A stretch of 51,830 bases of DNA, from NCBI GenBank assembly GCA_018396975.1, contig JAGTQA010000015.1, positions 1 through 51,830 on the forward strand. Direction: 5' to 3'. This DNA is from Candidatus Bathyarchaeota archaeon (GTDB taxonomy: Archaea; Thermoproteota; Bathyarchaeia; Bathyarchaeales; DTEX01). Below the pieces are notes generated by a model. The model had not been told where the DNA came from. It searched no databases and saw nothing but the letters and a program-made list of their open reading frames with translations. A program made the translations under genes and the position numbers. Each line of letters opens with the position of its first letter. Position 1 is the first letter of the stretch. Positions 18 to 42,788 of this stretch are shown in pieces.

Positions 18-95
18 TGGTGCGGCCGCCGGGATTTGAACCCGGGATCGCAGGCTTGGAAGGCCTGTGTCCTAACCAGGCTAGACGACGGCCGC
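18..95 (-). tRNA. tRNA-Gly (anticodon UCC), CCA encoded, intron-less
   Basis: The reverse complement folds as a cloverleaf. Acceptor GCGGCCG/CGGCCGC, D loop TAGCCTGGTTAG, anticodon stem CAGGC/GCCTG with loop CTTCCAA, T arm CCGGG-TTCAAAT-CCCGG, discriminator A plus CCA. Confidence 0.9.
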
Positions 96-29855: not shown

Positions 29856-30524
29856 CTATTCTTGGTTTTGTATATTTGCTAAATCCTCCTCACCGAGCTT
29901 TGCTGGCAGGGTCTCCTCACCCCGCCGCTCAAATATCTTCTTTAGCTGGCGCTTCATAACCTGTATGTTGCGGCTTAGGCCAAAGTAATCTGCGAAGTAA
30001 TCTGTTGTCTTCAGGATCATGTCCCTGCCGCTCTTCTCCCGCGTAACCAGCCCCATCTCAACTAGCTCCTTTATGTGGCTGTATGCGTGTCTCCCCCTAG
30101 CCTCCACAACCTGCTTTTGGGTTATCGGCTGCTTATAGGCTATATATGATAATGTTCTTAGGGGGCCATCCGTTAGGAGTGGTCTAATAGCCAGTCTCCT
30201 AACCCTATCCACATACTCCGTCTTGAGCTGTAGAACGAACCTTCCATCCTCAAGCTCAATTATCTCTAGGGCCGTGTTTCTCCGCGCATACTCCTTCATC
30301 AATACCCTCGCAAGCTTCTGAACCCTCCTCTCAGACCTAGAACCCAAAATCTTACATAGGGTCTTCAGGTCTAGCGGCCGCCCGGCAACATAGAGCGCTG
30401 CCTCAAGCAACCTAAGCTTTGCATCGGCATCGTTCCTAGCCGCCCTTCTCTTCTCCTCCCTCTTTTCTCTATCGGTCTGGTTCTCTACGCTAGCCGCTAA
30501 TGTCAGCCCCAGACACCTCCCCAT
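29856..30524 (-). CDS. scpB: segregation and condensation protein B
   Basis: LLEAALYVAGRPLDLKTLCKIL and tandem winged-helix domains. Follows scpA. Confidence 0.85.
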   Translation of the reverse strand: MGRCLGLTLAASVENQTDREKREEKRRAARNDADAKLRLLEAALYVAGRPLDLKTLCKILGSRSERRVQKLARVLMKEYARRNTALEIIELEDGRFVLQLKTEYVDRVRRLAIRPLLTDGPLRTLSYIAYKQPITQKQVVEARGRHAYSHIKELVEMGLVTREKSGRDMILKTTDYFADYFGLSRNIQVMKRQLKKIFERRGEETLPAKLGEEDLANIQNQE

Positions 30525-31176
30525 TCAGGGTTACATATATCTCGCCGAACTCCTCATGTTGCCATAGGGTTATCTTACCCCTTTGCGCCATGAAGAGGAG
30601 GATTACGAAGACCCTCACCATTTCAATCCTCCCCAATCCCTCAACGAGCTTCGAGAAGGTTATTATATCGCCTCTATCGACCAGCAGCCTCATTTTTCTG
30701 GTTAACCGCTCAATCTCATCCTCAATCTCCATCAGATATGCACTTATGGTTGGAACTATCTCTGGTGGTGGGAGTATGGGCTTTTGGGGCGCCTTAAGTG
30801 TTAGGAGACTCTCGCTCCTCAAGGCCTCATCCAAGGCCTCTATGAGACTCTCTATAGTTGTTGTTGTCAGCTCGTAGCGTAAGGGTAAAATTAATGGGGG
30901 CGGCACAAAATCCACGCTGGGCTTAGGCTGGGCTGTTGGCGGCTCCTCAAGCTTTAGGAGGAGGTTTGACTTTAGGAGATATATGGATGCTGAGGAGTCT
31001 AGGGCTACGCCGGATGCCCTAAAATCTATGTTAGCCCTCCGCTCCATCTCCTCAAGAAATGAGAGGAGCAGGAAGGCTATCTTTACGCTCCAAGGATTGA
31101 TCCTCTGCAGCTTATGCACGTTGAATAGTATGTCCCATGGTGGTTGGAGATAGAAGGGCTTATTGTCGGCATTCAT
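30490..31176 (-). CDS. scpA: segregation and condensation protein A (kleisin)
   Basis: Position between smc and scpB (4-nt overlap with smc), ~228 aa, and the winged-helix C-terminus RIEMVRVFVILLFMAQRGKI. Confidence 0.8.
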   Translation of the reverse strand: MNADNKPFYLQPPWDILFNVHKLQRINPWSVKIAFLLLSFLEEMERRANIDFRASGVALDSSASIYLLKSNLLLKLEEPPTAQPKPSVDFVPPPLILPLRYELTTTTIESLIEALDEALRSESLLTLKAPQKPILPPPEIVPTISAYLMEIEDEIERLTRKMRLLVDRGDIITFSKLVEGLGRIEMVRVFVILLFMAQRGKITLWQHEEFGEIYVTLNGEVSGADISG

Positions 31177-34100
31177 GCCCCCACCCCCTTAAATGTTGTT
31201 GAGATTACATGCGATACTCCATTCTGTCCATAAACCCCATAGATTCTATCAGCCTTACTAATCATCTCAGGCTTTAAGGTTATGACTATGAATTGGAGCT
31301 GGGATTTGGCAGCCTCCTCAGCCAATAGCTCGCCAAGCCTCTCAACATGGAATGCGTCTAGATGAGCGTCTATCTCATCGAAGAGATAGAAGGATGCTGG
31401 CGAGAATTCTTGGAGCGCGAACAAGAATGCAACGGCTGACACTGATCTTTCACCACTACTCGCCCCGCTCACCAGTATTGGGGGTTTTCCGGGGAACTGA
31501 ACTATCATGTCTATTCCCCCAGCGAATGGATTCTCTGGATTCTCGAGCTTTAGGGATGCGCTGCCCCCACCTGTCAGCCTAGAGAAGTATCCGTTTATTC
31601 TCTCATTTATTTTGTTGAAAGCATCCATGAAGACTTCACGCTTCTTCCGCTCAATCTCATCTATAAACCTTAGGATTGCCATCTTCTCCTCCTCAAGCTC
31701 ATTAAGCCTTGTCGAGAGTTCCTTATACCTTGAGACTTGCTCCGCATACTGTGTCTCGGCCAGCTGATTAACTGCGCCTATACGGTTGAGCTCATCCATC
31801 ATGAGTCTTAAGCGCGAGTCTATGTCTAGGCGGGCAATGATCTCATGTGGCAAATCGATCGGCTCATCGTAGCCTAGTGCCTTAAGTCTCTCCCTATATT
31901 GGCCCACCCTAAGGTTTAATGTCTGGAGTTTAAGTCTCAGCTCATTGAGCGCCCTTACCCCATCCTCATAATCCCTATCCAGCCTTAGGATCTCATTCTC
32001 TAAGGTATCTAACTCTGAAGTAAACTTCTTCACCTCCTCCTTAGCGCCCTCGAGGTCCCTAGATATCTCCATCCTCATCCTCTCTAGCTCCTCGATTCTC
32101 CTCTCAACCTCCTCCCTCTCCCTAGTGGCGCTCGCAACATTATCCTCTAGGGATGATATCTGCCCAGAAATGTCCTCTATTTGGGCTGCTATATTCTTTA
32201 GGCTCACCTTTAACGCGTTCTCTATTTTCGATCTTAGGGCCGATATTTCGGACTCAACACCATTATACTTCTGCTTGAGGAGTATTATCTCGCGTGCAAT
32301 AGTCTCGCGCTTAGAGTCCTTATCGTGCAGATTTAATAGGCTTATCTCCTCCCTTAGGCGCTTAAGCTCCTCACTTAATGCCCTCTCTCTTTCGCCTATC
32401 TCCCTAAGTCTCTCTTCATAGGATGCCAGCTGAGCCCTATCACCTTCTATTCGACCCATTAAATCGGCTATTGTCTTCTCAGCCTGCTCAATACTCAACT
32501 CAGCTTGGGATATGCTCCTCTTAACCCTCTCAACCTCACCCTCAACCTTACCTATAGACTCAGATAACCCAGCTATGTCGCTTTGTATCTTCGCTATTTC
32601 ACCCTCTATCTCAGCAATGAGACCCTCCCTATTCTCCAGATAACCCCTTAATGTCCTGACAGCCTTATCCAGATTCTTCAGGGCCTCATCGCTTGGAATA
32701 AAGGATGATAGGTCTATTGGGGTCCTGTAGAATCCGCTCTCAACCCCTCCGCCAGCCTCATAGAGATCGCCGCTTAACGTAACTACGCGGAGCCCCTCCT
32801 TAGAGGCCCTTAACGCAGCCTCCTCATTTAGGGCTAGTAGGGTGTCTCCAAGAACAAAGTTTACAGCGGCCTCATAGCGCCCATCACACTTAACGAATGA
32901 CGATATAGGCTCCCCCAAACCATCAATGTTCAGGGGTTTGGCGAAAACACCGCTGCTATTTGGCGATAACCCCTTTAAAGGAATTATCTTCACCCTACCA
33001 AGCTTCATTCTCCTTAAGGTCTCTATGCACGTGAATGCGACATCTAAGTCCTCAACAACTAGGGAGTCAAGCCATCCGGATGCGGCGGCCTCAACAGCCT
33101 TCTCATAGCCGCTCTTAATCTTTATCAGGTTCTTGAGTCTTCCGTGAATGCCGCCTATAACCCCTAGAGCGCTGAGCTCCTCAAGGTTTCTTAGGGCCAT
33201 CTCCTCAGACTTAATCTTCTTCACCAGATCCTTCTGGGCCTCGAACTCTATGAGTGCGCTCCTAGCTGCCTCAGCGATCCTCTCAGCCTCCTTAATCTCC
33301 TTCTCTAGAATAGCCCTCCGCCTAGCCCTCTTCTCCAAAGTCGCCTGCAACCCCTTCATCTGCTCCATCTGGCCGCTTAATATCTCCTGTAGTCTAAGCA
33401 GCGACTCCTGCAGTTTCTCCCTGGAGGACTTAAGATCTTCCATCTTGGCTTTTACATCCTCGAGCCTTTGTGTGAGCACGGTTATCCTCGATTGGAGCCT
33501 TTCACGCTCACCCTCAATCGAAACCCTCTCCTTACGCAGTTGATTCAGCTGCTCCTCAATCTCATCAGCTCTCCTCGCCCTCTCCTCAAAGGCTGATCTT
33601 ACCCTCGCAATATCGTCAGATATGGAGTTGTAGAGGGATTGTTTCTCATCTATCTCCCTACCGAGCTGCTCTAATGTGGCCGTTAGCTGAGCAATCCTCT
33701 CCTCAACCCTTCTAATCTCGCCCACAATATCCTCAGATTGCTTTTGAAGTCTCTCCCTTAGGTTCTTAAGCCTCTCAATACTTGCCCTACCATCACTTAT
33801 CCTCGAAGTGATCTCACTTAGCCTAGATCTTAGGCTTCCAATACTCACTTGAATCTCAACTATGCTGCTCCGTTTCTTCTCAGTCTCCTCGAAGCCTATT
33901 TTCCGAAGCTCATTCTCCAGCTCGCGGCGCCTTAACCTAAGGTTCTCCCTAAGCTCACCCAACTCCCTATTCTTCTCCTCAAGCCCCACAATCTTGCGCG
34001 ATATCTCCTCTATCTCGGCCTCTAGGGCTCTTATCTCCCCAGATATCTTTATTGACTCCAGATAGGCTATCTCCTTCCTAAGGAGGTTATAGCGTAGGAG

Positions 34101-34739
34101 ATTGTTCCGCTCCCTCTCTAAATCCTCAAGCCTCCTCTGAACCTCACCTATCTGTCCTAGGGCCGTCTTTATCGCTACATCCGCCTCCCTAAGCTTAGCC
34201 TCCGCCTCAGATTTCTCAGCATCATACTGGGCTATTCCAAGCATGTCCTCAATGATCTTCCTACGCTCCTGTGTAGATACCTCAGCCATGCGCGTTAGAG
34301 TACCCTGTAGAACAATATTATGTCCATATGGGCTTATCCCGGCGACTGAGAGAACCTCAAGTAGGTGGTTTCTTGGAACTCTTCTACCATTTATCCTATA
34401 TATGCTCTCGCCATTACGGTCTATTTCACGCGATATTGTAACAGTTGCAGTCTCAACGGGTATGCGCCCATCAGAATTATCAAATTGTATTATAACCTTC
34501 GCCTCGCTCTTCCTTATATTTGATCCCCCACCGCCATTAAATATGAGGTTGGAGAAGCTCTCGGCTCTAAGCCTCTTGGCGCTCAGCTCACCCAGACAGA
34601 AGAGGATGGCATCTATAATGTTGGTTTTGCCGCTGCCATTAGGCCCGGTTATAACTGTGAAGCCCCTATCAAATGATAGCGTGGTCTTTAAGCCAAACGT
34701 CTTGAAACCATTTATCTCTATACGCTTAATGTATGGCAT
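31173..34739 (-). CDS. smc: chromosome segregation protein SMC
   Basis: Walker A GPNGSGKTN, long coiled coils, a hinge, the signature SGGERS-like LVSGASSGERS, and Walker B YLFDEIDAHLD. Confidence 0.95.
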   Translation of the reverse strand: MPYIKRIEINGFKTFGLKTTLSFDRGFTVITGPNGSGKTNIIDAILFCLGELSAKRLRAESFSNLIFNGGGGSNIRKSEAKVIIQFDNSDGRIPVETATVTISREIDRNGESIYRINGRRVPRNHLLEVLSVAGISPYGHNIVLQGTLTRMAEVSTQERRKIIEDMLGIAQYDAEKSEAEAKLREADVAIKTALGQIGEVQRRLEDLERERNNLLRYNLLRKEIAYLESIKISGEIRALEAEIEEISRKIVGLEEKNRELGELRENLRLRRRELENELRKIGFEETEKKRSSIVEIQVSIGSLRSRLSEITSRISDGRASIERLKNLRERLQKQSEDIVGEIRRVEERIAQLTATLEQLGREIDEKQSLYNSISDDIARVRSAFEERARRADEIEEQLNQLRKERVSIEGERERLQSRITVLTQRLEDVKAKMEDLKSSREKLQESLLRLQEILSGQMEQMKGLQATLEKRARRRAILEKEIKEAERIAEAARSALIEFEAQKDLVKKIKSEEMALRNLEELSALGVIGGIHGRLKNLIKIKSGYEKAVEAAASGWLDSLVVEDLDVAFTCIETLRRMKLGRVKIIPLKGLSPNSSGVFAKPLNIDGLGEPISSFVKCDGRYEAAVNFVLGDTLLALNEEAALRASKEGLRVVTLSGDLYEAGGGVESGFYRTPIDLSSFIPSDEALKNLDKAVRTLRGYLENREGLIAEIEGEIAKIQSDIAGLSESIGKVEGEVERVKRSISQAELSIEQAEKTIADLMGRIEGDRAQLASYEERLREIGERERALSEELKRLREEISLLNLHDKDSKRETIAREIILLKQKYNGVESEISALRSKIENALKVSLKNIAAQIEDISGQISSLEDNVASATREREEVERRIEELERMRMEISRDLEGAKEEVKKFTSELDTLENEILRLDRDYEDGVRALNELRLKLQTLNLRVGQYRERLKALGYDEPIDLPHEIIARLDIDSRLRLMMDELNRIGAVNQLAETQYAEQVSRYKELSTRLNELEEEKMAILRFIDEIERKKREVFMDAFNKINERINGYFSRLTGGGSASLKLENPENPFAGGIDMIVQFPGKPPILVSGASSGERSVSAVAFLFALQEFSPASFYLFDEIDAHLDAFHVERLGELLAEEAAKSQLQFIVITLKPEMISKADRIYGVYGQNGVSHVISTTFKGVGA

Positions 34740-37125: not shown

Positions 37126-38082
37126 ATGGGGAAAGATGATGGCGCCTTGACGGAGGCAAAATCCGCTGGTAAGTTTAGGAGAAAGAGGCTGCCAGTATTC
37201 AATTCTTCTAGGTCCGCCCTCTGCACATGCCCGCCAAAATATAATATAAACCCCTATCTGGGCAGATGTTCCCACAACTGCCTATATTGCTATGCCATAA
37301 AATTCCCAAGCTTCACGGGCCCAATCATCCCACGCCTAAAACTCAAGGAGGAGATTTTGGAGATGGCTAGGGGAACTGGGATGCGCCTACCGGTCATGCT
37401 CAGCGATTCAACAGACCCGTATCAACCGCTCGAAAAGGAGTATGAGTTGACAAGGGCATGTCTAGAGACCCTATCCAAATATGAGTTTCCACTGCTAATC
37501 GTTACAAAGTCGGATCTGGTTGTAAGGGATATTGACATATTTAAGAAGACGCCAACCGTTGTCTCCATTACCATAACCACATGCCGCGATGATATCTCAG
37601 CGCTAATCGAGCCAAACGCTCCAAAGCCACATGCAAGATTCACGGCCCTAAAGAAGATTGCCGATGAGAATATACCAACCGTTATCAGAATAGACCCAAT
37701 AATACCGACGGTTAACTCAGACCTCAGCGACCTCAAACAAATCGTCTCCAAAGCCTCCAAGATAGGTGTTAAACAGATAACGGCATCCACAATGAAGATG
37801 GTTAGGGGCCTACCAGAGGTAATGAGGAGCATAAACCCCCATCTCTATAGTAGACTGGCCAAAATCTACTCTGGCGGGGAATGGATTGGGGGCTATAAGT
37901 ATCTAAATAGAGACTTGAGGCTAGGCATACTAAAGGCCCTAAGGTCAATAGTCCAAGAATACGGCCTAGAGTTTGCAACCTGCCGGGAGGGTTTCCAAGA
38001 ACTAAACACTACAATATGTGATGGAACAGCCTATTGCCGAAGGACCCTAGACGGCCTCCTAAAATCGAGAAGCGCCAAATAA
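37126..38082 (+). CDS. radical SAM protein (SplB/DNA-photolyase-like family)
   Basis: CSHNCLYCYA CxxxCxxC motif about 50 aa from the N-terminus; ~318 aa. Confidence 0.7.
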   Translation: MGKDDGALTEAKSAGKFRRKRLPVFNSSRSALCTCPPKYNINPYLGRCSHNCLYCYAIKFPSFTGPIIPRLKLKEEILEMARGTGMRLPVMLSDSTDPYQPLEKEYELTRACLETLSKYEFPLLIVTKSDLVVRDIDIFKKTPTVVSITITTCRDDISALIEPNAPKPHARFTALKKIADENIPTVIRIDPIIPTVNSDLSDLKQIVSKASKIGVKQITASTMKMVRGLPEVMRSINPHLYSRLAKIYSGGEWIGGYKYLNRDLRLGILKALRSIVQEYGLEFATCREGFQELNTTICDGTAYCRRTLDGLLKSRSAK

Positions 38083-38097
38083 GGTCCCTCTTCAACT

Positions 38098-40215
38098 TTA
38101 ATCCATGAAATCTTTGGCTCTTGGTATCTCGGCTGATAACCCCTTTCTAAGCCTTATGGAACGTATTATATGCGCCGCATGCTCCCCCGGAACCCTCTCC
38201 CAATGAGAGAAGTAGCTCTGCCAGAAGGCCCTTCCGGAGGATACGGCCCTCATCTCATCTGCTAGACCGAAGGATTCAGCAACCGGTATAAAACCGTTAA
38301 TAACCGAGAATAAACCCTTATCAGATACAGATGAAATTCTACCGCGCCTCCTAACAATCAAATTTATTACGTCGCCGATCCGCTCGGTTGGTGCCGAAAC
38401 CTGAATCCCATAGATTGGCTCAAGCAATACTGGTCTGGCCGTTAAAATCGAGCCTATTATCGCCCTCCTAACCGCCGGCATTATCTGAGCATACCCACCT
38501 TGAGATGGCTCCCCACATAAGCGGGCCTCAACAAGCTCAACCACCAAATCCCTCAGCGGTTCACCGCATAAGGGTCCGGATCTGCACGCCCATCTAAAAC
38601 CATCTATGATGGCTTCAAGACATTCACCGGATAAAACGCTTTCCGTCAAATCCACTAGGACATTTCTATTCTCATCCGATAGGATTATTTTTCCGTAAAT
38701 TTGGGCTGAGCCCCGCTCATCCAGCGGCCTAACCCTAACCGAAATCTTATTCAACCTATTCAGGCTACTCGCAGTGAAGACATCCCCAACATCACTAACA
38801 CTCTCCCTATAGGAGATCATGGGCTTAGAGACGATAACCTCCAAGCCCGGCTCAATCTCCCCTATAGATTTAACCGCTATATCTAGGTGGAGCTCACCGA
38901 TCCCGCTGAGGAGATACTCGCCGGTCTCCCTATTAATTGTAACCGTTAAGTTTGGATCCTCAATTAATAGGACATTTAGCGCGTTGAGAAGTCGCTGTAG
39001 GTCGCTTGGGCTCTTGGGCTCAATGGAGACCGCCACAACCGGCTCAGAAACATACTGAATCCTCTCGAAGGGGATCGCACCCTCCCTATAGGCTGGGTCG
39101 ATAATAGTTTCACCAGCCCTTAGGGGTTCAAGGCCGGATAGGGCAACTATATTGCCGGAATCCATCCAGCCGACATGCTCCCTAACGGCACCCATATATA
39201 CTGAGACTTGGCGGACAACACATTCTTTCCCAGCGCTAAGAAGATAGACCCTATCGCCATCCTCTATCTTTCCGGAGAAGATCCTACCCGTAGCGATTAA
39301 TCCCTCTTTAGGGTCTACTTTAACGCTCGCCACACATATCGCGGTTGGCCCCCCAGGATCACATTCAAGCATAGCCCTTCCAACATCCGAGGATAGATCT
39401 CCTCTCCAAATCTTCGGGATTCTATACTTTTGCGCCTCAACTGGGCTAGGTATCTTCTCAATGATCAGTCTGAGAATTGCCTCATGTAATGGTATAATTT
39501 CTTGGAGATCCCGCCAGCTTCCACTCAAATACATATTAATTATGTCGCTAAATCTTACGCCTCTCTCAATAGCGGTCTTCAGGGTTAAGCCCCACTTATG
39601 TAGCGCCGAGCCTATGACTACATCCCCTCGGGATATGCTAACCTTCCACTTATCTCTGAACTCCGGCTCACCATAAAGGTCTATTAATCCATTAAACTCC
39701 TGAATTATATGCAATATTCTCTTCTGTATTTCCTCAGCTGGCAATCTAAGCTCCCTAATCAACCTATCAACCTTATTTATGAATAGAACCGGCTTAACCC
39801 GCTCACCTAAAGCCTGCCTCGTCACAACCTCAGTCTGCGCCATAACACCCTCAACAGCATCAACGAGAACTACTGCACCGTCAACAGCCCTTAAAGCCCT
39901 TGTGACCCTACCAGTAAAATCGACGTGGCCCGGTGTATCAACGAGATTTATCACGTATTCTCTACCATTAATGTTATAGGCCAATGATATATTGGCGGAT
40001 TTTATTGTTATGCCACGCCTCTGCTCCTCCTCGAGATAATCGAGAACGCGGGCTTCGCCAGCCAGACTATAAGGTATTAACCCAGCCCTAGCCAAAAGCA
40101 GGTCCGTCAAAGTTGTCTTGCCATGATCTATATGGGCTATTATACTCACATTTCTAATACTTCTCTTATCCCTCATGATTTTCAGAATCCGCTCAGCCCC
40201 TTTAAAGCCCGACAT
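38098..40215 (-). CDS. elongation factor 2 paralog (aEF-2-like GTPase lacking the diphthamide histidine)
   Basis: G motifs AHIDHGKTT, DTPGH and NKVD are present with the five-domain EF-2 length. At the tip of domain IV the canonical HxDxIHRGxxQ is replaced by LCGEPSQGGYAQ (38491..38517). Confidence 0.8.
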   Translation of the reverse strand: MSGFKGAERILKIMRDKRSIRNVSIIAHIDHGKTTLTDLLLARAGLIPYSLAGEARVLDYLEEEQRRGITIKSANISLAYNINGREYVINLVDTPGHVDFTGRVTRALRAVDGAVVLVDAVEGVMAQTEVVTRQALGERVKPVLFINKVDRLIRELRLPAEEIQKRILHIIQEFNGLIDLYGEPEFRDKWKVSISRGDVVIGSALHKWGLTLKTAIERGVRFSDIINMYLSGSWRDLQEIIPLHEAILRLIIEKIPSPVEAQKYRIPKIWRGDLSSDVGRAMLECDPGGPTAICVASVKVDPKEGLIATGRIFSGKIEDGDRVYLLSAGKECVVRQVSVYMGAVREHVGWMDSGNIVALSGLEPLRAGETIIDPAYREGAIPFERIQYVSEPVVAVSIEPKSPSDLQRLLNALNVLLIEDPNLTVTINRETGEYLLSGIGELHLDIAVKSIGEIEPGLEVIVSKPMISYRESVSDVGDVFTASSLNRLNKISVRVRPLDERGSAQIYGKIILSDENRNVLVDLTESVLSGECLEAIIDGFRWACRSGPLCGEPLRDLVVELVEARLCGEPSQGGYAQIMPAVRRAIIGSILTARPVLLEPIYGIQVSAPTERIGDVINLIVRRRGRISSVSDKGLFSVINGFIPVAESFGLADEMRAVSSGRAFWQSYFSHWERVPGEHAAHIIRSIRLRKGLSAEIPRAKDFMD

Positions 40216-40343: not shown

Positions 40344-40430
40344 TTACTTAGCTACTTGTATCTCTCGCGCCTCTTCTTTCTCTTCCTCTTCTCACGGCGC
40401 ATGCGCTTCTTCTTCCACTTAGCCCTCATC
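40344..40430 (-). CDS. rpl41e: 50S ribosomal protein L41e (eL41)
   Basis: 28-aa ORF absent from the track: MRAKWKKKRMRREKRKRKEEAREIQVAK. The first 18 residues are nearly identical to eukaryotic eL41 (MRAKWRKKRMRRLKRKRR). Confidence 0.75.
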
Positions 40431-40634
40431 CCATGCCATCTTCTCCAAACAAGCTTTTAATGGTTAAAGATTGAATTGCGAGCGCAGGCCCCAGTAAATG
40501 AGGCTTTTAATATGGTTTTCTCCTTCACCTTATTAAGTTTTCGGACTTAGGCTTATGGAATAGAACGCTATGCTTATAAAAGCCGAAAGGCCTTTAGTAG
40601 TGGAAGAGACTTAAGGGTGAGGGAAGAACCCCAG

Positions 40635-41534
40635 ATGAGGGGATATCTACTCTGCATACCATGCACCCTAAGAGCTGCATACGACATAGCCATAAAGGCC
40701 ACAGAAGATGAGGAGCTGCAGAGAAGGGTTCTCCTAGAAACCCTAAGGTGGATGAATGAGGAAAATAACTTAATGAATATAACTCCCGCCATGCTACATA
40801 CTCATGTCTTTAGACTCGTCCAAAAAATTACTGGAAATAGGGATCCATTTGCGCATCTAAAAAGGGAGTCGAATAAATTGGCGATGAAATTAACGCCTAT
40901 TCTAGAGAGTGAGATCGAGAAGCTAGGTCCCGAGGAGGCCTTCAGACTGGCGGCTTTAGGGGCAATATGCGGTAATTCAATAGACTTCGAGGTTGAGGGC
41001 TACCAAGTCTTACTAGAGGATCTTGAGCGGCAATTGCTAAGCTGCTTGAAGAGCGGCCTAGCAATTGATGATACACCTAAGCTTAGGAATGCTCTCTCAG
41101 AAGCTAAAACAGTCCTTTATTTGCTGGATAATGCCGGAGAAATAGCCTTTGACAAGACCTTCATAAAATTTATCGTTAAGAACTATCCGGTTAAGGTATT
41201 AGCCGCCGTCAAGTCCGGTCCGATCCTAAACGATGTAACCATGGAGGATGCACTTTATGTCGGCCTAGGAGAGGTTGCGGAGGTCATCACAACAGGCAGC
41301 GACTCAATAGGCTTAAACCCAGATGAGTGCTCAGGCGAATTCATGGAGCGCCTAAAGGAGTCCGATCTAATAATTGCGAAAGGTCAGGGATATTACGAGA
41401 GCCTAACGGAGATAGAGAATATCCTGAAAAAGCCCATAGTATACATGCTCAGAGCCAAATGCTCGGTCGTCGCCAGATCCCTCAATACGCGCCAAGGGTC
41501 AAATGTGGTCAAGGTTGTGGGATACCCTAAATAA
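40635..41534 (+). CDS. DUF89 / ARMT1-like damage-control phosphatase family protein
   Basis: CIPCTLRAAYD N-terminus, DPF..LK, LLDNAGEIAFD and AKGQGYYESL motifs of DUF89. Start at the internal MRGYLL. Confidence 0.75.
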   Translation: MRGYLLCIPCTLRAAYDIAIKATEDEELQRRVLLETLRWMNEENNLMNITPAMLHTHVFRLVQKITGNRDPFAHLKRESNKLAMKLTPILESEIEKLGPEEAFRLAALGAICGNSIDFEVEGYQVLLEDLERQLLSCLKSGLAIDDTPKLRNALSEAKTVLYLLDNAGEIAFDKTFIKFIVKNYPVKVLAAVKSGPILNDVTMEDALYVGLGEVAEVITTGSDSIGLNPDECSGEFMERLKESDLIIAKGQGYYESLTEIENILKKPIVYMLRAKCSVVARSLNTRQGSNVVKVVGYPK

Positions 41535-41565: not shown

Positions 41566-42246
41566 ATGAAACTCGGTGCGCTTTTTTCTGGCGGAAAAGA
41601 CTCTTGCTTGGCTATTCATAAGGCCCGAGCATTCCATGAGATAGCCTGTCTAATAAGCCTAATTCCGAAGAGTGAGGAGAGTCTCATCTTCCATTTCCCA
41701 AATATATGGGTCACTAGATTCCAAGCCGAGGCAATGGGCATACCAATAATTCAGATAGAGACTGAGATAGGTGAAGAAAAAGAGTTAACCAGTCTATTTA
41801 AGGCTTTAAAGCTGGCTATTAAGAGGTATGGAATCAGTGGGATAGTCACTGGTGCAATAAGATCCACCTATCAAGCAAGCAGAATACAGAGAATATGCAA
41901 TAGACTTGGGCTCTGGTGCTTTAACCCCCTATGGCTTAAAGATCAGGAAGAGTTAATCCGCGAGGTTTTAGAGGCAGGTTTCGAGGTTATAATCTCGGGA
42001 GTATTCGCATACCCACTTAACAGCAGCTTCCTCGGCAAGAAATTAGATGCAAAACTCCTAATCGAACTCTTAGATTTATGGAGGAAGTATGGCATAAGCA
42101 TCGCTGGTGAGGGGGGCGAGATAGAGACAACAGTCCTCGACGCTCCCATGTTTAAGAGGAGGATAGAGGTAACCGATTATGAGATACAGTATAGGGGCGG
42201 CTCCGGCATCTTCAGGATAAAAGACCTTAGGCTCGTGGATAAATGA
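41566..42246 (+). CDS. PP-loop ATPase of the MJ0570 / diphthine-ammonia ligase (Dph6) family
   Basis: The ALFSGGKDS PP-loop, GAIRSTYQASRIQRIC and AGEGGEIETTVLDAPMF match the DUF71/Dph6 N-terminal domain family. Confidence 0.75.
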   Translation: MKLGALFSGGKDSCLAIHKARAFHEIACLISLIPKSEESLIFHFPNIWVTRFQAEAMGIPIIQIETEIGEEKELTSLFKALKLAIKRYGISGIVTGAIRSTYQASRIQRICNRLGLWCFNPLWLKDQEELIREVLEAGFEVIISGVFAYPLNSSFLGKKLDAKLLIELLDLWRKYGISIAGEGGEIETTVLDAPMFKRRIEVTDYEIQYRGGSGIFRIKDLRLVDK

Positions 42247-42788
42247 GAGCCCTACTCATAAACCTATGCCTAGATCCATTAAGTGAATTGGAGTTCGTTA
42301 AGCCAATCGAATATATTCTTAGATATCATGGAATCAATACGTTCATTAAACGCTATATGGAGATTTCTCCAGAAGATCTAGGGCTGGCAGAAAAAGTGAT
42401 TCTTTGTGGCTCAGCTTTAAAAGATGATCACTTCTTAACGGACAAATGGTTTAGATGGCTTGAAAAATACGATAGGCCAATTCTCGGAGTGGGCTCAGGC
42501 TCCCATGCTATAGCGAAGGCTTTCGGCTGCAGCCTTATTAACAAGACGAAGATTGGAATGTTTAAGGTTAGATTGATTAGAGAGAGTAGGCTAATGGATA
42601 AAAGAGTTTTCTACGCCTACTTCTTAACGAAGAGAGCTATAATACCCACCAAACCTCTAGAGTCTCTAGCCAAGGTCGGAAACCTAGACTGTATGATCAA
42701 ACATGAGTCTAGGGAGATTTACGGCTGCCTATTCCATCCTGAAGTAATGAACCCGGAGATAATTGTGAACTTCATCTCAAAGACCTAG
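42243..42788 (+). CDS. class-I glutamine amidotransferase-like protein lacking the nucleophile Cys
   Basis: GuaA-subunit-like layout. PILGVGSGSHAIA stands where GATase1 has ILGICLGHQLIA, so Cys is replaced by Gly84 (about 42492..42494). The His-Glu element FHPE is retained. ATGA overlap with the upstream gene. Confidence 0.55.
   Translation: MRALLINLCLDPLSELEFVKPIEYILRYHGINTFIKRYMEISPEDLGLAEKVILCGSALKDDHFLTDKWFRWLEKYDRPILGVGSGSHAIAKAFGCSLINKTKIGMFKVRLIRESRLMDKRVFYAYFLTKRAIIPTKPLESLAKVGNLDCMIKHESREIYGCLFHPEVMNPEIIVNFISKT

Follow-up and report, generated by a model that had tools for sequence, protein, structure and literature searches.

Archaeal paralogs of elongation factor 2 (EF-2) that lack the histidine converted to diphthamide, named aEF-2p, were described by Narrowe et al. 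in 2018 (PMC6143161). Since then, the leading idea about their function has tied them to diphthamide loss. According to the accessible text of that study, aEF-2p proteins keep the GTPase motifs G1-G5, have lost the HxDxxHRG motif including the His as well as the SPHKHN loop, and occur together with a His-bearing EF-2 in the same organism. The paralogs were tied there to missing dph genes, and dph5 and dph6 were not found in two paralog-bearing Bathyarchaeota drafts; the part of Eme et al. 2023 available to us repeats this link. The same accessible text reports potential paralogs in Bathyarchaeota RBG_13_46_16b and SG8-32-3 and two bathyarchaeal clades, one placed with TACK and containing canonical copies and paralogs, the other deep and canonical, a pattern that was drawn from 2-3 genomes and called unresolved. 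Our literature search, which covered subscription journals thinly, turned up no publication after 2018 in which the bathyarchaeal pattern is resolved or aEF-2p is tested. In this study, we analyzed a 51,830-nucleotide stretch of DNA from a Candidatus Bathyarchaeota archaeon (contig JAGTQA010000015.1 of assembly GCA_018396975.1; hereafter the window) that encodes a protein of this kind, P0001. The close relatives of the host are Candidatus Bathyarchaeia of a hot-spring lineage.

The gene for P0001 is a single open frame of 705 codons, and the plus frame of the same region is full of stops. A sequence-only reading of the locus had proposed an EF-2-like protein of 705 aa with intact GTPase motifs, and our analysis confirmed this, with AHIDHGKTT at aa 27, RGITI at aa 67, DTPGH at aa 93 and NKVD at aa 147. 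P0001 shares with aEF-2p the retained motifs G1-G5. The gene and the features of its GTPase core are as follows.

38098..40215, minus strand: EF-2-family GTPase P0001, 705 aa, very probably a native-locus EF-2, with degenerate domain IV (bathyarchaeal aEF-2p type)
40111..40137, minus strand: G1/P-loop AHIDHGKTT (aa 27-35), intact by sequence motif and alignment
40006..40026, minus strand: switch I E64-Q65-x-R67-G-I-T70, intact by residue comparison
39925..39939, minus strand: G3 DTPGH with the catalytic His97, intact by motif and residue comparison
39766..39777, minus strand: G4 NKVD, intact by motif and residue comparison
39550..39552, minus strand: Phe222, the equivalent of Pyrococcus F226, kept in the alignment; the neighbouring groove residue F205 is Ile201 here

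In the sections available of the two structural reports, residues equivalent to E64 and Q65 touch the sarcin-ricin loop in Sulfolobus aEF2 (PMC10516650), and Pyrococcus F226 is a key P-stalk-binding residue (PMC5887453).

The results for domain IV were different. The sequence-only reading had also claimed that the diphthamide-acceptor His is missing, and this was borne out: a gap-free alignment to Sulfolobus aEF-2 (8hl1), VHEDPAHRGPAQ to LCGEPSQGGYAQ, places Gln572 at the His and Gly573 at the Arg, and multiple alignments agree with the pairwise placement of Gln572. The peptide LCGEPSQGGY had been assigned to 38491-38517; CGEPSQGGY is indeed encoded there, and the leading L lies at 38518-38520. 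Five altered sites were located in domains IV and II.

38494..38517, minus strand: diphthamide loop CGEPSQGG in place of HEDPVHRG, with His replaced by Gln572 (38500-38502), by gap-free alignment
38749..38766, minus strand: domain IV loop I SLNRLN (aa 484-489) in place of SPNKHN, with the tRNA-contacting K and H replaced by R487 and L488, by alignment
38698..38703, minus strand: approximate junction of a deletion of ~28 aa in the domain IV insertion subdomain, by alignment
39301..39315, minus strand: domain II loop DPKEG, which is DPH(A/S)G in intact copies and scrambled across degenerate copies, by residue comparison
39208..39213, minus strand: domain II RQ in place of QQ, which is invariant in intact copies and variable in degenerate ones, by residue comparison

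The loop I change, which corresponds to the lost SPHKHN loop of aEF-2p, and the ~28-aa deletion are two lesions beyond those in the earlier reading. The insertion measures 25 residues between anchors versus 53, and the whole of domain IV 128 aa versus 156-158. In Sulfolobus aEF2, as far as the accessible part of the paper goes, tRNA is contacted by K490, H491, D601 and H604 and the rRNA of the 30S head by the insertion (PMC10516650). The equivalents of all four residues are altered in P0001 (R487, L488, E569, Q572). In domain II, the DPH.G loop and the QQ pair are invariant or nearly so in 55 intact copies and scrambled in both sets of degenerate copies described below; similar changes are present in Asgard-type look-alikes. 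In EF-G and eEF2, domain II is turned towards helices 5 and 15 of the small subunit, according to the available portions of three reports (PMC3150367, PMC4896748, PMC8674143), and the DPH.G and QQ residues would accordingly lie on the small-subunit (h5) face.

We then compared P0001 with canonical archaeal EF-2 (TIGR00490; 8hl1-4, 5h7j, 6u45), which provided its top sequence and fold matches. The AlphaFold2 model of P0001, built from a 60-row alignment, had a mean pLDDT of 86.7, and its best fold matches were archaeal EF-2, so that the five-domain fold expected from the sequence-only reading is retained in the model. The GTPase motifs, switch I, the stalk-groove Phe and the domain III and V signatures are shared as well. 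P0001 differs in its lost domain IV loops and insertion, its scrambled domain II loop, its relaxed selection and its score of 714 bits with the TIGR00490 aEF-2 model, below the cut-off of 738.45, whereas the two intact EF-2 types of its relatives reached 879 and 935. Contigs from 3/3 DNA runs (three studies, one run possibly being the source sample) span the gene without an indel, and we therefore rejected a sequencing or frameshift artefact and an assembly error; among the differences listed between these contigs and the gene, none falls in the diphthamide loop. A pseudogene was also rejected, given the open frame and a dN/dS of 0.10-0.11 against the copy of G011. In RNA run X12, from a related strain, contigs covered both neighbours and no long piece covered the EF-2 gene, a contig gap that is uninformative.

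P0001 was the only EF-2 found in the 1.1-Mb host assembly (G000). We read 102 genomes in all for EF-2 matches, and a subset of the matches was fetched. The relatives carry two types of EF-2: type A, with an RGITI-like switch I, which includes P0001, and type B, with RQMTV and an intact domain IV. All type-B copies with a whole domain IV (39/39) carry HEDPVHRG. In congeners (type-B locus set of genus g1: L031-L043, L053, L054, L070), the gene order is Ca/Na antiporter, type-B EF-2, rps19 and argS (reverse). In the host assembly, the antiporter match ends 14 nt before the end of contig C70, contig C64 starts inside argS, and rps19 was not found; the gap between C70 and C64 falls at the position of type B and rps19. 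Metagenome contig L214 matches C70 at 99.84% identity over 5038 nt and then extends into the first 245 codons of a type-B gene, and the species therefore has a second EF-2. The sequence-only reading had offered a canonical EF-2 elsewhere as one of two possibilities, and this one proved correct: the gene sits in the C70-C64 gap together with rps19, and its start can be read on L214. P0001 as the sole EF-2 was rejected on the basis of the gap synteny and the type-B start on L214. Like the aEF-2p cases, P0001 is thus accompanied by a second EF-2 in the same organism, which is His-bearing in the relatives.

The same locus is often missing elsewhere. In the genus, no type B was seen in 9/23 genomes, and 8 of these 9 also lack rps19; in the ninth, rps19 lies about 100 nt from a contig start. 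EF-2 B and rps19 are absent from ~4 in 10 genus g1 assemblies, some of them rated 94-97% complete. No His-less EF-2 copy was found in any genus without type B among the 102 genomes read, and in the other orders sampled nearly every genome had one EF-2 match. These data bear on whether P0001 is still a translocase, either as a secondary or low-fidelity enzyme working without diphthamide or, with diphthamide targeting rewired, as the sole EF-2. In favour of such a role, the assembly contains no other EF-2 and the five-domain fold is intact; against it, the single copy reflects an assembly gap, all four tRNA-contacting residues are changed, the head-contacting insert is deleted, and His-less copies were found only in genera with type B. 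We consider a residual translocase highly improbable, and its sole-EF-2 version is largely refuted.

Several further observations were made at EF-2 loci of these genomes. The antiporter gene before type B (L214:3-1888) shares 89.6% DNA identity with that of L034 (G007), the flanking genes 64-79%, and the first 200 bases of the type-B gene are 90-95% identical between L214 and G007, which suggests an interspecies recombination tract at the type-B locus. The type B of L185 (G118) has KQRGVTI in place of KRQMTV in switch I, possibly through reversion or conversion. Two type-B copies in G013 (L041/L042) and two intact type-A copies in G051 (L066/L068) lie on separate contigs and represent duplication or mixed bins.

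The diphthamide genes set this locus apart from the aEF-2p cases. In addition to dph6 in the window, dph2 and dph5 are present elsewhere in the host genome, and dph2 was found in 58/61 genomes searched. By comparison with the descriptions in the accessible text of Narrowe et al. (PMC6143161), the presence of dph2, dph5 and dph6 together is a difference from aEF-2p.

41566..42246, plus strand: dph6, diphthine-ammonia ligase, 262.6 bits with its HMM (cut-off 197.3)

The dph6-like gene noticed 1.3 kb away by the sequence-only reading passes the family cut-off and starts 1.35 kb from the EF-2 start codon. The other possibility raised there, rewired diphthamide targets, is not needed, because dph2, dph5 and dph6 are present along with an ordinary EF-2 target, type B. 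The substrate of Dph6 would be this second EF-2 rather than P0001. Proximity does not support dph6 as a functional partner, since the adjacency is seen in the genus and not at most intact loci; the closeness looks like local gene order.

We next examined where P0001 came from. Two neighbours mark the locus.

40352..40429, minus strand: rpl41e-type gene, 25-aa Lys/Arg-rich protein, ancestral EF-2 locus marker
37126..38082, plus strand: radical SAM gene, convergent neighbour, ancestral EF-2 locus marker

The rpl41e-type gene reported beside EF-2 was found at 40352-40429 on the minus strand; we take its product to be that of rpl41e, following the earlier label. Its link with EF-2 is ancestral and common to intact copies, and in sister genera and families, intact EF-2s present as a single copy have the same arrangement with rpl41e and a convergent radical SAM gene. 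The locus comparison gave no sign of a functional link between the radical SAM gene and EF-2. Outside the genus, P0001 is most similar to intact type A (59-62% identity), followed by the Odinarchaeum aEF-2p (50%) and type B (about 50%). Of its lineage-specific residues, which are of weak help, 8/23 are common to the order and 2/23 to eight outgroup paralog-like rows.

The decay can be followed across living genomes. All genus copies in which domain IV was read lack the His (19/19; 17 full-length, 2 partial). In family f10, the His is missing from 20 of the 23 type-A copies read and retained in 3. The f10 loops form a graded series: HEDPVHRG in G153, where an adjacent type B is also intact, then HEDPSHRN, then HENPKMRE, and finally a tip that can no longer be recognised; in seven f10 genomes, identity alone was the basis for counting the second match as type B. 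G059 (L052) and G153 (L172), from different families, each have an intact type A and an intact type B side by side, and in G043 (L045) the gene in the type-A neighbourhood is type B.

Trees were built from prokaryotic EF-2 types, with sequences below 640 aa left out of trees and site counts and those below 520 aa out of the domain IV loop alignment; among the Asgard-type paralog rows, P0141 is a named paralog and the others are sequence look-alikes. Without domain IV, the 40-row tree places the degenerate copies among the intact EF-2s of the order, and in the 18-row tree the P0001 type is sister to genus g9 at 91 within an order clade at 98. Because of the synteny, the graded intermediates and most trees, P0001 probably decayed in situ, and its synteny favours an origin probably apart from the Asgard aEF-2p. 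The label "paralog" used by the sequence-only reading calls for a qualification: a second EF-2 exists, but P0001 is most likely the original EF-2 at the ancestral locus, later demoted. As to whether decay occurred once or twice, the 40-row tree groups the genus copies with f10, the approximately unbiased (AU) test does not reject monophyly of family f1 (p=0.25), and a neighbour-gene tree groups the genus with g4/g9 (86). We lean towards two events on these sequence comparisons.

In the 30- and 18-row trees, a split at 99-100 puts type B on the euryarchaeal side. Its nearest outside relative is P0127, joined at 97 in two trees on a long branch, in a cluster that includes an EF-2 of a "Euryarchaeota archaeon"; the donor of type B was not found in the trees made. 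The RQMT switch I is not unique to type B: RQMTI also occurs in the single EF-2s of several other families. Taken together, P0001 is very probably the lineage's original EF-2 (type A) at its ancestral locus, with type B as the presumed translocase and diphthamide bearer.

Among single-copy EF-2s, those of G040 (L060), G088, G083, G111, G128 and G134 are interrupted at the P-loop or have frames of 1200-1330 aa; the VHN-T junction in G040 resembles what we take to be an intein end. Single-copy EF-2s in L196, L199, L205 (family f15), L206 and L211 have HTG or HFG in place of HRG.

To assess what has been kept, alignment columns with at least 95% invariance across 78 intact EF-2s were scored in 17 genus and 20 f10 degenerate copies. 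The genus and f10 copies, respectively, kept 64 and 66 of 71 such columns in domain I, 29 and 25 of 34 in domain II, 19 and 20 of 25 in domain III, and 18 and 16 of 19 in domain V. In domain IV, only 14 and 7 of 29 were kept; the f10 figure is partly circular because loss of the His motif was the criterion for that group, whereas the other domains are not affected. E64, R67, T70, H97, NKxD and F222 hold in 37/37 degenerate copies, and the domain III residues G438, G440, L442 and H443 (the GxGxLH frame) and R624, P644, E647 and R656, including domain V signatures, are likewise constant in 37/37. These patterns indicate that the putative large-subunit contacts are kept and the putative small-subunit contacts in domains II and IV are lost.

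This pattern of retention was weighed against two other ribosomal roles. P0001 could be a storage or anti-association factor that occupies the factor site of idle 50S or 70S particles and holds ribosomes inactive, which is the hibernation role of EF-2. The same kept surfaces would serve such a role and dispensability fits a stress function; in addition, the available text on Methanosarcina describes aEF2 with PurH bridging 50S dimers (MRDF) via the sarcin-ricin loop, with domain IV aside (PMC12605026). Both would involve 50S-only binding via this loop without translocation, but the MRDF factor is a canonical EF-2 moonlighting with PurH and P0001 a dedicated degenerate copy. His97 and switch I are invariant in 37/37 copies, beyond the needs of a passive plug, and no partner gene is linked at the loci compared, and we regard storage as improbable. 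The second role, a 70S rescue, protection or back-translocation factor like Tet proteins or LepA, was suggested for aEF-2p in the accessible text of Narrowe et al. (PMC6143161). A domain IV of reduced length could still fit into a rotated or stalled 70S, the genus has a new and fairly conserved G-Y-A-Q-x-x-P pattern (Tyr575 in 13/17), and domain IV dN/dS is 0.13-0.26 in the 6 correctly bounded pairs of 7, the mis-bounded G000-G011 pair being left out. However, the genus and f10 do not share a conserved tip, domain IV length ranges over 124-154 aa, the small-subunit face of domain II decays too, and a version in which the protein compensates for lost diphthamide cannot apply because the dph genes are present. 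A 70S role is thus distinctly unlikely.

Selection on the gene was then estimated by a simple counting method, with some pairs near saturation. dN/dS was 0.08-0.18 in degenerate copies (14 pairs), versus 0.012-0.067 in type B (7 pairs) and 0.012-0.078 in intact type A (7 pairs). The values lie above those of the intact types but resemble those of neighbouring enzymes (0.06-0.21), indicating that purifying selection maintains the gene but is relaxed. Alternatively, P0001 may be a redundant leftover in slow decay, kept by generic constraints such as folding and not jamming ribosomes or by a small dosage benefit. In line with this, selection on it is 3-10 times weaker than that on type B when the same genome pairs are compared; the clean losses and the split copy reported below agree as well. 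On the other side, the degenerate gene is present in 20/23 congeners across saturating synonymous divergence, its dN/dS is like that of working enzymes, and two lineages show no variation in the GTPase and sarcin-ricin-loop residues. We consider a mere leftover unlikely.

We propose instead, tentatively, that P0001 may be an EFL1-like 50S GTPase that releases the anti-association factor aIF6, which on the sequence pattern is quite possible. In the available portions of the relevant reports, Sulfolobus aEF-2 frees aIF6 from 50S in a GTP-dependent manner (PMC8024482), and eukaryotes handed this job to EFL1 (PMC6710477). In the proposed scheme, a divergent type-B EF-2, probably of outside origin, would have taken over translocation and diphthamide, after which the original EF-2 would have lost its tRNA and small-subunit surfaces and retained the GTPase engine and large-subunit surfaces. 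The P-stalk would recruit P0001 to free 50S subunits, where it would dock on the sarcin-ricin loop and stalk base via domains I, III and V, and GTP hydrolysis would evict aIF6, possibly with aSBDS. We infer the GTPase activity, 50S binding and aIF6 release of P0001, as well as the direction of type-B transfer. The gene would be helpful but dispensable, because type B is evidently able to do the aIF6 job.

Both aIF6 and SBDS are intact in the host genome. A complex prediction of P0001 with the genome's SBDS gave a weak score of 0.45, versus 0.00 for the best of 3 controls; runs agreed in at least 95% of contacts, and the partner pLDDT was at least 81. The complex-score mark was reached by 116/157 solved pairs and 2/215 mismatched pairs, of which 18/157 and both mismatches were at <=0.60. 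The score may simply reflect likeness to the EFL1-SBDS complex, which has already been solved.

The comparison with EFL1/Ria1, an EF-2 derivative that, in the accessible text (PMC6710477), is described on the free large subunit evicting IF6, is a functional analogy only. Domain II of P0001 aligns to archaeal EF-2 without the long insert of EFL1, and the proteins measure 705 versus 1120 aa, as far as the source describes. P0001 matched EFL1 (5anb_K) at 268.6 bits versus 725.6 for Sulfolobus EF-2, its origin is probably separate, and it is dispensable in related genera. One long EFL1 candidate considered for comparison was rejected, as it matched eEF2 better. From its sequence, P0001 has the features of an aEF-2p; it lacks the anatomy of an EFL1 and does not qualify as a canonical translocase.

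Several points weigh against the scheme of an original EF-2 turned 50S GTPase. For its origin, the 30-row tree leaves open a fork with Asgard-type paralogs, a fast tree pulls the degenerate copies to the base, and the AU test does not reject their union with Asgard-type aEF-2p (p=0.21). The type B of this species is known from its first 245 codons, and the domain IV motif comes from relatives' copies. In all type-B-only genomes checked (5/5, from 4 genera), the locus no longer holds the gene, and rpl41e and the radical SAM gene lie 0.1-1.4 kb apart without an EF-2 remnant. The copy of congener G002 (L020) is split into two frames with altered G1/G3, and that of congener G007 (L012) has a D-to-N change in the P-loop; both fit drift towards loss and reflect either decay or assembly error. 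For its function, the proposed 50S role rests on a sequence pattern, and this pattern is not specific to aIF6 release, because a storage role, or any role in binding 70S, would call on domains I, III and V as well. The mapping of domain II residues to 16S h5 was drawn from eukaryotic and bacterial papers, the SBDS controls contained no intact EF-2, and aSBDS is described in the available text as inhibiting aEF-2 instead of helping it (PMC8024482).

The remaining features of the window were also surveyed. Next to the rpl41e-type gene lies a further neighbour.

40617..41534, plus strand: damage-control phosphatase-like gene, divergent neighbour, given as context

A class I glutamine-amidotransferase-like frame (42243-42788, plus strand) overlaps the dph6 stop codon, has weak matches to GMP synthase subunit A and retains FHPE. 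We take it to have Gly at the expected position of the catalytic Cys; it may be a partner that supplies Dph6 with ammonia, or else an inactive relic. An SMC-like gene (29856-34739, minus strand) with two ScpA/ScpB-like neighbours, judged by eye, and one tRNA (21-95, minus strand) are ordinary. An Rfam scan of the window found only tRNA, and a promoter and terminator scan used sigma-70 models, which are uninformative for an archaeon.

The basic object is already in print, and the additions made here are its probable in-situ origin and its coexistence with the full dph pathway, which breaks the link between the paralog and dph loss. On this reading, the native gene has become the odd copy, and it is the working one that looks like the newcomer, an unusual fate for a core translation factor. 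Assemblies that miss the type-B locus show only the degenerate EF-2 and can mislead marker-gene work, which is a warning for marker-gene trees and completeness scores. All stages are still extant, with both copies intact and adjacent, one half-decayed, one fully decayed or one deleted, and these graded natural variants make the question of an EF-2 without its tip testable in vitro. A broader and doubtful possibility is that Bathyarchaeia, once an incoming EF-2 had taken translocation over, more than once turned their own EF-2 into a dedicated large-subunit maturation GTPase, convergent with EFL1 and acting with SBDS on aIF6, with the intermediates still living. If true, such EFL1-like convergence would also suggest a role for the Asgard aEF-2p proteins.

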